Sequence record: MG748547
Origin: Escherichia phage EP75
DNA: 64,000 bases
Direction: 5' to 3' (one strand)
A program made the position numbers and the translations under genes. Below, in pieces: positions 41,045 through 51,114 of the stretch. How positions within the stretch are numbered: the first letter of the stretch is position 1; each line of letters begins with the position of its first letter. Under the pieces are notes generated by a model. The model had not been told where the DNA came from. It saw only the letters and a program-made list of their open reading frames with translations, and did not search any database.

Positions 41045-41839
41045 ATGGCCATTCTAAAACTTGGCAACCGAGGTTCTGAAGTCAAATCACTTCAGCAAAG
41101 CCTCAATAAAATCGGGTTCTCTCTTATAGCTGATGGCATATTTGGTAAGGCGACCGAGAATGCTGTCAAATCCGTTCAGGCAGGTGCCGGACTGGTGATT
41201 GATGGTATTGCAGGTCCAAAAACCTTCTATGCTATCCGTAATGCCGGAGACGCTCATCAGGAACATCTTACCGAAGCCGACTTAGTTGACGCAGCGCGTG
41301 AACTTGGTGTCGAACTGGCCAGCATGAAAGCTGTTAACCAGGTCGAATCTCGGGGTACTGGTTTCACCAAAACAGGTAAGATCAAAACTCTGTTCGAGCG
41401 CCACATCATGTATAAGAAAGTGGCGGCTAAATTCGGACAAGCAAGAGCCAATGCTCTGTACCAACTTTACCCAACATTGGTTAACCCCAATTCTGGTGGC
41501 TATATCGGCGGAGACGCGGAGTTGGAACGCCTTCAGGGTGCAATCGCCCTTGATGAGGACTGCGCGTACGAGAGTGCGTCCTACGGCTTATTCCAGATCA
41601 TGGGGTTCAATTGCCAGATATGTGGTTATCCGAACGCCAAAGAAATGTTCACAGATTTTCTGACTGGTGAACGTGCACATCTTCTGGCATTTGTGAAATT
41701 CATCAAAGCTGACGCCAATATGTGGAAAGCATTGAAGAACAAAAATTGGGCTGAGTTCGCCCGTCGGTACAATGGTCCAGCATATGCCAAGAACCAGTAT
41801 GACACCAAACTAGCGGCGGCATACAAGAGTTTCTGTTAA
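41045..41839 (+). CDS. endolysin: peptidoglycan-binding domain plus N-acetylmuramidase-like catalytic domain
   Basis: N-terminal PG_binding-like repeat (LKLGNRGSEVKSLQQSLNKIGF ... IDGIAGPKTF); C-terminal domain with FQIMGFN and YNGPAYAKNQYD resembling phage muramidases. Confidence 0.75.
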   Translation: MAILKLGNRGSEVKSLQQSLNKIGFSLIADGIFGKATENAVKSVQAGAGLVIDGIAGPKTFYAIRNAGDAHQEHLTEADLVDAARELGVELASMKAVNQVESRGTGFTKTGKIKTLFERHIMYKKVAAKFGQARANALYQLYPTLVNPNSGGYIGGDAELERLQGAIALDEDCAYESASYGLFQIMGFNCQICGYPNAKEMFTDFLTGERAHLLAFVKFIKADANMWKALKNKNWAEFARRYNGPAYAKNQYDTKLAAAYKSFC

Positions 41840-47696: not shown

Positions 47697-48077
47697 TCAA
47701 TTTGTCCGTTTCAACCATATGGTATCTGTTATCGGCTCTGGGTTGTTAACCACATAAAAAGTTATGGTTACGCCCAGAGAATGATAATCGTCAGACAATG
47801 ACACATCAACTGATTGTATCTCCGCTCTCGGTTCAAATAAAGCAATCGCGTCTTCAACTTTGTTTTTAACGTCAACCTGAATTGTGGGGTTTGTATTTTC
47901 CCCCAGCATGGTATACAGCCCAGCTCCGATACTTGGGTATGTCGGCCAATCCCCAACAGTCGACATCACGATATTCCGCACGGATTGCAACACGGCATAA
48001 ACACCTGTTTTCTTAGTGACATCTTTGGTGACCGGATGCATGCCAAACTTCAGGTCAATGTCCTTGTACTCTTTCAT
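47697..48077 (-). CDS. 25: baseplate wedge protein (gp25/GPW family)
   Basis: Start at 48077 (MKEYKDIDL) with AAAGGGG SD; YKDIDLKF ... FEPRAEIQSVDVS ... LGVTITFYVVNNPEPI align with T4 gp25. Confidence 0.75.
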   Translation of the reverse strand: MKEYKDIDLKFGMHPVTKDVTKKTGVYAVLQSVRNIVMSTVGDWPTYPSIGAGLYTMLGENTNPTIQVDVKNKVEDAIALFEPRAEIQSVDVSLSDDYHSLGVTITFYVVNNPEPITDTIWLKRTN

Positions 48078-48091
48078 GTTAAACCCCTTTG

Positions 48092-48124
48092 GATATTGCC
48101 TCTCCGGCACGAGAGGGCAATATC
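48092..48124 (-). promoter_or_regulatory. near-perfect inverted repeat (13-14 bp stem) between the gp5-like and gp25-like genes
   Basis: GATATTGCCTCTC-CGGCAC-GAGAGGGCAATATC; no U-tract after it on the coding (-) strand, so more likely an mRNA structural or processing element than a terminator. Confidence 0.4.
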
Positions 48125-48141
48125 TGCCCTCGCCAGTGTAA

Positions 48142-49767
48142 TCATGCGTCTTTACCACCAAAGTTGCCGCCATTATCCTCTAGTTCCGGTTTTATATCAA
48201 TTGGACCAGGACCAGAAGTAGATACTGGAGTTGCCCCAGCGCGTGATGCAGCACGACCAGCACCTTCAGCATATTTGATGTTGCCTTCAATAGTCTGCGC
48301 CACCGACAACTTATCACAAACTATTTCACTAGCCAGTATTTTAGGCACTTTCAAAGTATTGGAAACTTCCAACATCTCGCAGATGATACGCATCACGTTT
48401 TGCGCTTGAATTTCGGCCAGCTGTGAAAATTTCAACAGCGCCGTGCCAGCAACCACATTGGAATAGTTCGATGAATGTAGATGATAGACCTCACCTGTCT
48501 TGCGCTGAACTTCAGTCCCACCAATGGTCAGGTTGTGATCACGACCAACATAGTAACGTTTGTCAAACATCGTCAGATCATAGTGATCTTTAACTGATTT
48601 ATTGACCACGTCCCCGTCAGGAAGCATCTGCTTATAAGACCCCGAGGAGTGCATCCAATGGAGACGTTCCCCGCCTGGTGTGTCATCAACCTCCATAATA
48701 TGTCCCGAACGAGATGCCATGACATTGTTGTAAGGATAACGAGACCCGCCAGCAGAAGGAACCGACACCTCTCCTGTGTTATCAATATCTTGAACACGCC
48801 CAGAAGGAGGCGGAGTTTCCTGAACTTTTGGTGTACGATCAGGGATTGGCTCAGACCATTTACCATTTTGTTGTGTAGGAGCCGCCGATGCTGTCGTAGC
48901 AGGACCAGGCCAACGATAACCCAACACAGATGAGCGGCTGAAGCGACTCACCTTCACAGAATCTGATTGGTTGCCTCCAATACACCAAACATAATTGGCA
49001 TCGAATTTCTGCACGAACGCAACGTGTCCGAATGTTGGGTTGTTGCCACGCCGGAATACAACAACAGCGCCGTAGCGGGGTTCCGACAAAGGGGAACCCC
49101 ATTGCAAATATGAACGAGCCAAAGCCGAGCGCGTTGAAGTGTATCCTGCTTGGATCAACACCCATCCCACAAATGATGCACACCAGCTGACTTCATCTTC
49201 CGAAGCGCCCAAAGATGTTGTCTTGTGATATTCCAAAATCCTTGGGTTATTATTGAATTTACCAGAATATTCTTTGACACCTAATTCACCACGAGCCACT
49301 GTCATCCATTTCTCAGGATCATAACCGTCCACAGGAGGTTGAGGTTCTGGTTGAGGTTCGTCTTCAATCTTGACAGGAACATTTTCAACGGCGTTATATT
49401 TCTGCCTTTCTATAGATTGAACGACCTGGCCCAGCGCCAACGGGTTTGTGTCTGAACCATCTGTTGGTGTCGCCGCTGGCCAAACCCAGGCGATACGAAT
49501 ATTTTGGTATGCTTCATCCAAAGCAAAACCCATAACATCCGACCCGACTGTAATACCCGTTGGAGACCAGCCTAAACCTGCCGAGGAGGCGTTAGATGCT
49601 GGCATGAGCATTTTACCCCAAGGCAATAATTCGGTAGGTAAGAGAGTGGTATCTTCCGTGTGTACACCATAGATGCGCACAGCGACGCGCCCGTTCTGGT
49701 CGGGATCATTCACGTCTTCAACGCGCCCGTAAAACCAACGCAAGTTGTCTAACATATTGAAACCCAT
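48142..49767 (-). CDS. 5: baseplate central spike (gp5-like) with CHAP/NlpC-P60-like hydrolase domain
   Basis: N-terminus LRWFYGRVEDVNDPDQNGRVAVRIYGVHT aligns with T4 gp5 OB domain; central WCASFVGWV ... GHVAFV resembles a Cys-His peptidase rather than T4 lysozyme; Gly/Ser-rich C-terminus. Confidence 0.75.
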   Translation of the reverse strand: MGFNMLDNLRWFYGRVEDVNDPDQNGRVAVRIYGVHTEDTTLLPTELLPWGKMLMPASNASSAGLGWSPTGITVGSDVMGFALDEAYQNIRIAWVWPAATPTDGSDTNPLALGQVVQSIERQKYNAVENVPVKIEDEPQPEPQPPVDGYDPEKWMTVARGELGVKEYSGKFNNNPRILEYHKTTSLGASEDEVSWCASFVGWVLIQAGYTSTRSALARSYLQWGSPLSEPRYGAVVVFRRGNNPTFGHVAFVQKFDANYVWCIGGNQSDSVKVSRFSRSSVLGYRWPGPATTASAAPTQQNGKWSEPIPDRTPKVQETPPPSGRVQDIDNTGEVSVPSAGGSRYPYNNVMASRSGHIMEVDDTPGGERLHWMHSSGSYKQMLPDGDVVNKSVKDHYDLTMFDKRYYVGRDHNLTIGGTEVQRKTGEVYHLHSSNYSNVVAGTALLKFSQLAEIQAQNVMRIICEMLEVSNTLKVPKILASEIVCDKLSVAQTIEGNIKYAEGAGRAASRAGATPVSTSGPGPIDIKPELEDNGGNFGGKDA

Positions 49768-49788
49768 TAGTCAATTAGAATCATGGGT

Positions 49789-49796
49789 TATTTATG
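49789..49796 (-). promoter_or_regulatory. late-like promoter box (CATAAATA on - strand)
   Basis: Plus-strand TATTTATG; 22 nt upstream of the gp5-like start codon on the - strand. Confidence 0.35.
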
Positions 49797-50090
49797 GCGG
49801 GGATTTGAAATCTGTCGAATAGTAATATTATAGGAAGCTCTGCTTCCGTTCAACTTTATTCTTTTCATTTCTACTCGCTGAAGCTCGTAACACCGCCTTG
49901 ACAGGCAGTCCCATTCCAATGCCATGGAGGCATAAAGGCGAGGAAAATACTGTACACCTCAGAACATGCGTAGAAAAGGATTATTTTTGCTTCAAAACAA
50001 ATTCAAACCCCAATTTACACAACACTTACTTCAGCAACAACGGTTTTATAGCAATTTAAGGTTAAACGTTCCTGTCTTAACCTATAAAAC

Positions 50091-50125
50091 AGTTAAGCAA
50101 AGAAAACCCCACATTACGTGGGGTT
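50091..50125 (-). terminator. intrinsic terminator (- strand)
   Basis: AACCCCAC...GTGGGGTT hairpin; on the - strand it is followed by TTTTCTTTGCTT; downstream of the - strand gene 50275..51078. Confidence 0.55.
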
Positions 50126-50274
50126 GGAAGATTTCTTAGACAATCGGATCTTCAGTGTCTCTGTTAGCAAATCAAGATGCCAAGGCATCGACTCGCTTAT
50201 TTCAAATATGCTATAGCCATGTGCCTTTAATTCGTCACACATCACAAAGTAGGAGAGTAAATCAATTTCAAAAA

Positions 50275-51078
50275 TTAAATGAAAATTTCAGTGACACTGT
50301 TAAATTTGACTTCGTGTTCTTTCCCACACGAAGGACATTTAATTTTCGTCGCGTAACGGATACGAGGAATCTTTTTAAAGAAATCGTCGGATATATCTTG
50401 AACAATCTCAGATTCAATATTTTCCCCCACCCATTTAATGAATTCATCCTTGACACGTTGACGTTCTTTAGCAACATCGGGAGATATGCCAGGCTCTGCT
50501 GGATTCTCTACTTTCCAAACCTGACCATCATCGTCATACAAACAATCAATAAAGGTCGCGATCATTTGCTCCACAGATGATGCTTCGTTGAGCACTGAGG
50601 CGTCCGAGAAGGACGGTTGACGCATCTTGATGTGATAGCCACCAGGGAGGTCAAATGTTTCCCTGAAGCCTTCTGGGGACACGCATTTCACTTGGTTGAG
50701 GGGGATCGGTAAAACAAGTTCTTGACCGCATTCTTTAAGGCCAGAAACTGGTTCTTCGCCTTCATCTGTGGCAGCTGGAACTTTGTTGTTGCATTTGTAA
50801 CGTATCTTCATGATCTCACCGATAGATATACAGCGCATCTTTAAAAATACTTCTTCAGTAACACCGATCGGCAGTTTACTAAAGGGAACCCCAGCGTCAA
50901 CACAACTATCAAATAGTTGCTCCAGCGTCGCCACACGTTCACTCATAGGAGTGTTCGGATCAGCAACCTGAAGTAACATGGTCTGTTGCCCTGCTGTGAA
51001 GGCGCGGTATTTGATCACAGTCGGCCAGAAATCACTTTTATGTGTTCTCTCAGTTTTGGGCAATGATGGTAAATTCAT
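50275..51078 (-). CDS. hypothetical late protein, probably virion/baseplate-associated
   Basis: 267 aa on - strand immediately upstream of gp5-like gene; C-terminal CPSCG zinc-ribbon-like motif; exact late box upstream. Confidence 0.5.
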   Translation of the reverse strand: MNLPSLPKTERTHKSDFWPTVIKYRAFTAGQQTMLLQVADPNTPMSERVATLEQLFDSCVDAGVPFSKLPIGVTEEVFLKMRCISIGEIMKIRYKCNNKVPAATDEGEEPVSGLKECGQELVLPIPLNQVKCVSPEGFRETFDLPGGYHIKMRQPSFSDASVLNEASSVEQMIATFIDCLYDDDGQVWKVENPAEPGISPDVAKERQRVKDEFIKWVGENIESEIVQDISDDFFKKIPRIRYATKIKCPSCGKEHEVKFNSVTEIFI

Positions 51079-51106: not shown

Positions 51107-51114
51107 TATTTATA
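51107..51114 (-). promoter_or_regulatory. T4-type late promoter box TATAAATA (- strand)
   Basis: Plus-strand TATTTATA; 29 nt upstream of the start of gene 50275..51078 on the - strand; divergent from + gene starting at 51128. Confidence 0.5.

Follow-up and report, generated by a model that had tools for sequence, protein, structure and literature searches.

What kind of enzyme does the central baseplate spike of Escherichia phage EP75 carry in the position that a lysozyme holds in gp5 of phage T4? The spike gene, a homologue of T4 gene 5, is a single open reading frame (ORF) of 541 codons at 48142..49767 on the minus strand of the 64,000-nucleotide stretch of record MG748547 that we analysed (the window). 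An earlier note, made from the letters alone, had proposed that a CHAP/NlpC-P60-type domain stands there in place of the T4 lysozyme domain, behind a gp5-like N-terminal OB domain, and our profile searches, a confident fold model and the invariance of key residues in 25 orthologues bore this out. We consider it likely that the gene encodes the central cell-puncturing spike of a Vi01-like contractile phage, in which a gp5 scaffold is combined with a papain-like peptidase that acts in entry. Domain identities and order, fold, conservation and gene context were computed here and presence in the virion was taken from the literature; from these we infer enzymatic activity, the bond cleaved, the timing of action and a trimeric arrangement.

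The exchange of lysozyme for CHAP in the Vi01-like spike has itself been known since 2011. Under the section title 'Baseplate Lysozyme', Kutter et al. (2011; Virology Journal 8:430, PMC3184105) described the orthologue of phage CBA120 as having no lysozyme, with CHAP/TIGR02594 at residues 150-282 between gp5-like flanks at 3-109 and 334-437. Also in 2011, a table accompanying the PhiSH19 genome gave its protein of 541 residues as 'Gp5 OB family & CHAP domain'. Most GenBank records and later papers nevertheless keep the name 'tail lysozyme' without comment, and the 2024 review of the family Ackermannviridae does not discuss the spike enzyme. What we add is a confident fold model, a mapping of the catalytic residues, conservation across genera and a comparison of the enzymes that occupy this slot.

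Both flanks of the EP75 protein are recognisably those of a T4 gp5-type spike. The N-terminal gp5-type OB-fold domain (residues 5-98, approximately; 49474..49755, minus strand, as for all parts of the gene below) matched Pfam Gp5_OB over residues 39-98 (E 5.4e-10; 40.1 bits against a cutoff of 25), and the full-length model showed beta-strands over residues 10-96. In a phmmer search of the PDB, T4 gp5 and a T4-like spike matched only spike residues 4-87 and 339-434 and left the stretch between them uncovered; the OB stretch was paired with residues 6-91 of the T4-like gp5, and spike residues 341-434 with residues 384-475. A profile of 25 orthologues aligned spike residues 1-98 with residues 4-106 of the T4-like spike 9F4A, and residues 338-460 with residues 385-507 of T4 gp5 (whole-sequence E 6e-40). 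The latter stretch (48388..48756) is a gp5C-like region, whose homologue in T4 gp5 is the first part of the beta-helical needle; the spike protein itself gave no match to Pfam Gp5_C or Gp5_trimer_C. The 81 residues that follow (461-541; 48145..48387), of which the last 40 or so are rich in Gly, Ala and Pro, were modelled with a low predicted local distance difference test score (pLDDT), have no match in Pfam or the PDB or anything detectable outside the spike family, and lack a counterpart in T4 gp5.

Between the two gp5-like stretches, in the place of the T4 lysozyme domain, sits the CHAP-type domain (residues 154-286; 48910..49308), and the T4 gp5 lysozyme region found no counterpart in any of the spike alignments. 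It is joined to its neighbours by two linkers without a family match, recognised by composition. The first is rich in Pro, Glu and Val and includes EDEPQPEPQPP (residues 99-153; 49309..49473), and the second is rich in Pro and Thr (residues 287-337; 48757..48909) and lies where T4 gp5 has the linker with its maturation cleavage site. In the full-length AlphaFold monomer, built with the 25 orthologues, pLDDT fell below 50 across residues 98-145 and 290-345; with a mean pLDDT of 51.4, this model is good for rough domain boundaries only. Neither a sequence nor a profile search of the PDB returned an Ackermannviridae spike or baseplate protein among the solved structures. The EP75 protein shares with T4 gp5 (1K28, 1WTH, 5IV5) a homologous OB domain, the start of the beta-helix, an enzyme inserted between them and a gene in the baseplate cluster, and by analogy its role is expected to be that of a trimeric puncturing device. 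Presence in the virion is likewise on record for its orthologues. The GH24 lysozyme is absent, a trait of T4 gp5 itself rather than of the wider spike family.

The family of the inserted domain was identified by two profiles, with matches far stronger than chance would give. Pfam CHAP matched residues 191-266 (E 3.5e-10; 40.7 bits against a cutoff of 26), and NCBIfam TIGR02594 matched residues 154-286 from position 2 to position 132 of its 132 model positions (E 8e-39; 132.9 bits against a cutoff of 70.55); this central part also matched endolysin families. Searching the PDB with the domain sequence itself gave marginal matches only (E 0.14-0.18), and a profile search was needed to reach homologues there. 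We modelled residues 145-295 with AlphaFold from an alignment with 39 homologues, which yielded a mean pLDDT of 93.2 and a predicted template modelling score of 0.89. The folds nearest to this model were endopeptidases that cleave between gamma-D-Glu and meso-diaminopimelic acid (mDAP), the DL-endopeptidases. Next in the fold comparison (values in brackets) came CHAP endolysins such as LysGH15 (10.7). The neighbours further included the type VI effectors Tae3 (10.5) and Tse1 (8.7), and the hub or spike hydrolases diffocin CD1368 (12.7), gp10 of phage Andhra (8.5) and the hub protein of phage phi812 (7.8). All structural neighbours were papain-like peptidases, and Foldseek comparisons with the PDB and with viral models returned no lysozyme. 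By profile and by model, the central domain is placed in the CHAP/NlpC-P60 superfamily (Pfam clan CL0125), in its TIGR02594 branch.

The predicted active site fits this assignment. Both motifs named in the earlier note, WCASFVGWV and GHVAFV, are present in the ORF. The first, as SWCASFVGWV, contains the predicted nucleophile Cys196 (codon TGT, 49180..49182), which the domain model places at the N-terminus of helix 195-206; the second, as FGHVAFV, contains the predicted general base His248 (codon CAC, 49024..49026), which lies within a beta-strand and forms a papain-like arrangement with Cys196. In the profile search, the family motifs WCSSF and GHVGF aligned with DCSSF/DCSGL and HVGIY of CwlO and CD630_03720, motifs that we take to carry the catalytic Cys and His of NlpC/P60 enzymes. 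Invariance and spacing point to Asn266-Gln267 of a GGNQ motif (codons 48967..48972) as candidates for the polar residue that completes the triad; they stand 18-19 residues past His248, right after the next strand. Cys196, His248, Asn266 and Gln267 are invariant in the 25 spike orthologues, whose overall identity falls as low as 36%. Among 40 TIGR02594 proteins, the Cys was at least 90% conserved, the His invariant and the Asn and Gln invariant or nearly so.

Given this architecture, a course of events can be proposed in analogy to T4. The OB domain would dock on the gp27 hub, as in T4, and the C-terminal region would form a trimeric needle. Sheath contraction would then drive the needle through the outer membrane, by which three copies of the enzyme may reach the periplasm. 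There, using the predicted residues Cys196, His248 and Asn266 or Gln267, they would cut amide bonds in the peptide stems of peptidoglycan, and the resulting local hole in the wall would let the tail tube pass.

As to the bond, the model makes gamma-D-Glu-mDAP the most likely substrate, because the nearest folds are DL-endopeptidases, and MurNAc-L-Ala (MurNAc, N-acetylmuramic acid) or mDAP-D-Ala less likely ones. The superfamily also holds mDAP-D-Ala endopeptidases (MepS, Tae3) and MurNAc-L-Ala amidases (some CHAP domains). The cleavage of peptide cross-links proposed in the earlier note is therefore too specific, given that the superfamily covers several bond specificities of which the present evidence singles out none. 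Several points weigh against the reading of the spike as a peptidase that acts in entry. Bond specificity is not readable from sequence, and while the folds favour DL-endopeptidases, the best Pfam family, CHAP, includes amidases. From the alignments, the third residue of the triad may be either Asn266 or Gln267 and is not narrowed to one. The poor full-length model (pLDDT 51.4) cannot place the enzyme relative to the needle, nor speak to occlusion of the active site or to maturation cleavage. The searchable literature yielded no enzymatic assay of the spike protein or of a close TIGR02594 relative, and no genetic test of the spike enzyme domain.

How do other explanations fare against this reading? 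That the central domain is a lysozyme, as the names of many records and the usage of some papers have it, is refuted at the level of sequence and fold, and we give it practically no credence. Nothing favours it beyond the inherited product name, whereas a Pfam scan of the spike down to E<=1 found no lysozyme family, Phage_lysozyme included, TIGR02594 spans the whole domain, and the alignments and structural neighbours described above leave no place for the T4 enzyme. A profile assignment to lysozyme, the outcome that the earlier note had named as refuting its proposal, thus did not occur. More serious is the idea that the CHAP-like domain is a structural or peptidoglycan-binding module for which catalysis is not needed, the needle alone breaching the wall. 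T4 gp5 lysozyme activity is reportedly dispensable in some laboratory conditions, which counts in favour of such a module, and enzyme-free gp5-like spikes do exist (P0152, composed of OB and Gp5_trimer_C only). The abstract of a 2025 cryo-electron microscopy paper likewise describes a contractile phage without enzymatic domains for penetration (PMC11948020). However, the Cys, the His and the GGNQ motif have remained invariant although orthologues differ at up to 64% of other positions, and this is the pattern expected of a working active site; we regard a purely structural role as improbable.

It is also conceivable, if considerably less probable still, that the enzyme is active with its main role outside entry, in lysis at the end of infection or in tail assembly. 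When Kutter et al. (PMC3184105) wrote, CBA120 had by their account no identified enzyme for lysis, and the TIGR02594 module is a putative endolysin in other phages. EP75, however, has a conventional endolysin candidate at 41045..41839 on the plus strand, just upstream of a phoH-like gene, in which PG_binding_1 (E 3.6e-15) is combined with an N-acetylmuramidase domain (PF11860, E 4.1e-58). The CHAP domain is moreover covalently embedded between spike domains, with no signal sequence or holin partner, and the spike protein is a virion component. The Sajous1 orthologue, labelled 'tail associated lysozyme', was recovered by mass spectrometry from virions purified on caesium chloride (PMC10892097), and Kutter et al. 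(2011; PMC3184105) cite the proteomics of Pickard et al. (2010) as having detected the ViI orthologue. From this literature, the spike orthologues are virion proteins.

With entry by a peptidase as the preferred reading, the EP75 spike departs from T4 gp5 in its enzyme, a papain-like cysteine peptidase of another fold and chemistry than the GH24 lysozyme, which cuts glycan strands. It departs also in the relation between entry and exit: the spike lysozyme and the endolysin of T4 are paralogues, while the muramidase-type endolysin candidate of EP75 and its spike enzyme are unrelated. Compared with the gp5 homologues of CBA120, Vi01 and PhiSH19 there is no substantive difference, these being the same protein at 98-99% identity. 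Other hub and spike hydrolases with a related fold, namely diffocin CD1368 (8V3W), the phi812 hub (9EUF, 9EUM) and Andhra gp10 (8EJ5), are built on another scaffold than gp5 OB plus gp5C, are directed at thick-walled Gram-positive targets and show no detectable sequence relationship beyond the fold. The VgrG-delivered effectors Tae1/Tse1, Tae2, Tae3 and Tae4 are separate killing cargo accompanied by immunity proteins, in contrast to the EP75 enzyme, which is fused into the spike and would serve genome delivery.

We also surveyed the enzymes that other spikes carry in this slot, using Gp5_OB-containing proteins retrieved with the full-length spike as query. Alongside the classical T4 type with OB, Phage_lysozyme and Gp5_C (P0170), we found OB followed by Peptidase_M15_4 (P0148), by Peptidase_M15_3 (P0164) or by Peptidase_M15_3 plus Phage_lysozyme2 (P0168), and one protein with OB, SLT, CHAP and Gp5_trimer_C (P0145), that is, with two enzymes in one spike. 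Because a gp25-like gene directly follows P0145 and P0148, as it does in the window, these two are taken as genuine spikes. The layouts with SLT transglycosylase plus CHAP and with Peptidase_M15_4 are those of spikes on metagenomic contigs (L029:5498-7432 and L031:5001-7277), where a gp25-like gene comes after each. Rhizobium phage RL38J1 has a shorter form of OB plus CHAP, 288 residues long and without a needle. Such variety allows the tentative suggestion, which we hold to be rather less probable than its opposite, that the central slot of gp5 is a freely exchangeable cassette (for lysozyme, SLT, M15, TIGR02594 or two enzymes) and that the Ackermannviridae version is a working entry enzyme that cleaves peptide bonds.

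The closest relatives of the central domain lie outside spikes. At 45-58% identity over the catalytic domain, and with the same Cys, His and GGNQ, they are small stand-alone TIGR02594 proteins or fusions to PG_binding_1, SH3 or LysM, architectures that are usual for endolysins and for secreted enzymes that hydrolyse the wall. Among the stand-alone relatives, the closest (P0002 and P0018) have phage-like genomic contexts, with an integrase, an HTH repressor and a terminase-like protein; no holin or spanin was recognised near either gene, and for both the term 'endolysin' is unproven. TIGR02594 proteins have been described as putative endolysins in Pseudomonas phage ZC01, and TIGR02594 forms the C-terminal domain of the Stenotrophomonas rhizophila type VI effector Tae5. 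Phage endolysins, type VI effectors and the spike module all draw on one pool. Members of this pool, including those of ZC01, ICP1 and Tae5, are all thought to target peptidoglycan; they are soluble lysis enzymes or secreted toxins with wall-binding modules, whereas the EP75 enzyme is built into the spike and has no binding module. Acinetobacter baumannii Tse4 was considered as a biochemical anchor for TIGR02594 and rejected, as its peptidase has been modelled on the zinc M23 enzymes ShyA and LytM and is not a cysteine peptidase.

The inherited name has had consequences. In more than 250 deposited genomes of Ackermannviridae, 'tail lysozyme' misstates the chemistry, and the spike's name has spread to unrelated proteins. 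In Vibrio phage ICP1_2004_A, a protein called 'Gp5' (ADX89615.1; L002:2752-3468) consists of PG_binding_1 and CHAP with no spike domain, and its gene stands between ribonucleotide reductase genes and phoH. This protein looks like an endolysin and probably owes its name to the Vi01-like spike, by way of the TIGR02594 domain that both contain. Ackermannviridae phages are widely used in biocontrol and diagnostics. The importance of the finding is modest: the exchange has been in print since 2011 and shows in Pfam and NCBIfam annotations. A modular enzyme slot in gp5, with M15 and SLT plus CHAP spikes in the same gene order, is relevant to the engineering of spikes and to exclusion systems directed at entry enzymes. 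If the Ackermannviridae version proves to be a working enzyme that cleaves peptide bonds, the entry toolkit of myoviruses would have a second chemistry. Endopeptidase activity had been demonstrated for only one virion lysin of a phage that infects Gram-negative hosts, P5 of phi6, according to a 2017 review of virion-associated enzymes.

The earlier note had further expected consequences for host range and for sensitivity to exclusion of the Spackle type. We found no support for an effect of the enzyme swap on host range. On the gp5 lysozyme, the cleft that binds sugar is surrounded by a basic patch to which Spackle attaches, and even the T4 endolysin, a relative of that lysozyme, is not appreciably inhibited by it (PMC7677548). 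Since Spackle targets a surface of the lysozyme fold and largely spares even that endolysin, it is a reasonable inference that the EP75 spike would be insensitive to it. Under the cassette hypothesis, phages with such spikes would be blind to lysozyme-directed exclusion proteins, T4 Spackle among them.

The spike gene is widespread and strongly conserved. Gene and protein are 98-99% identical to those of Salmonella phages Marshall, Maynard, 38 and Vi01 and of E. coli phages ECML-4, CBA6 and Sa157lw, and because of this identity to Vi01-like phages we assign the window, on sequence grounds, to Kuttervirus (Ackermannviridae; Vi01-like or ViI-like). DNA-level matches to the gene were found in 253 phage-collection records, in 248 of which at least 80% of the gene was covered. 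Translation may start at Met1, giving 541 residues, or at Met5 (codon 49753-49755), giving 537; among deposited relatives, PhiSH19 is annotated with 541 residues and CBA120 and Marshall with 537.

Baseplate genes flank the spike on both sides. Downstream, a gp25-like baseplate wedge gene (47697..48077, minus strand) encodes 126 residues when read from an internal Met and matched Pfam GPW_gp25 (E 2.8e-08). The longest ORF for this gene (47697..48173; 158 residues) would overlap the spike gene by 32 nucleotides. An AAGGGG stands ahead of the internal ATG at 48077, and relatives are annotated with the shorter form (381 nucleotides in Marshall, 126 residues in PhiSH19). The wedge gene thus most likely starts at the internal Met, and the overlap probably arises only from choosing the longest ORF. 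Upstream lies a gp26-like baseplate hub gene (50275..51078, minus strand; Pfam T4_baseplate, E 1.7e-51; phrog_150, 'baseplate hub'). About 30 nucleotides ahead of it is an exact TATAAATA box of the T4 late-promoter type (51107..51114, minus strand). Such boxes occur four times in the window against 1.9 expected by chance, an excess that is not significant alone.

The 507-bp gap between the hub and spike genes (49768..50274) holds several further features. Directly after the gp26-like gene comes a small ORF of about 43 codons (MCDELKAHGYSIFEISESMPWHLDLLTETLK...; 50114..50245, minus strand). It is probably a real gene, judging from an alignment of three Ackermannviridae genera in which most substitutions affect the third base of a codon (GAC/GAT, TTA/TTG, CAT/CAC). 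Dickeya phage JA15 has a hypothetical protein of 49 residues annotated in this stretch of the gap, and Marshall, ECML-4 and 0507-KN2-1 have none. At its end stands a hairpin like that of an intrinsic terminator, AACCCCACGTAATGTGGGGTT followed by a T-run (50105..50125, minus strand), whose stem has changed in a compensatory way in the other two genera (CCCCAC/GTGGGG, CCCGC/GCGGG, CCCCGC/GCGGGG). The hairpin implies that the spike gene would be transcribed from a promoter of its own. About 25 nucleotides upstream of the spike start there is a CATAAATA box (49793..49802, minus strand), which has one mismatch to the T4 late-promoter consensus TATAAATA and is present in the spike upstream region of all three aligned genera; on its sequence it is a putative late promoter.

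Between the small ORF and this box, the gap contains a strongly conserved non-coding block (about 49810..49975, minus strand) that reads …TCTGAGGTGTACAGT…CCTCGC…TTATGCCTCCATGGCATTGGAATGG…CTGCCTG…. Next comes a hairpin, CGGAAGCAGAGCTTCC, in which Klebsiella phage 0507-KN2-1 has a compensatory change, and after it TATAATAT. The gap gave no match in Rfam, has no second copy within the window, and its predicted fold is not unusually stable (z = -1.24); the three sequences compared are too small a set for judging covariation. Across 19 viral contigs, each genome has the core motif a single time. The block could be a leader or other regulatory element, or a small RNA.

Some records labelled as Enterococcus or Pseudomonas phages also matched this gene of an Enterobacteriaceae phage or its upstream gap, among them Enterococcus phage Efm 3-10, with a 49-nucleotide piece at 94% identity. 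Mislabelling, contamination or chimeric assembly could account for these matches.

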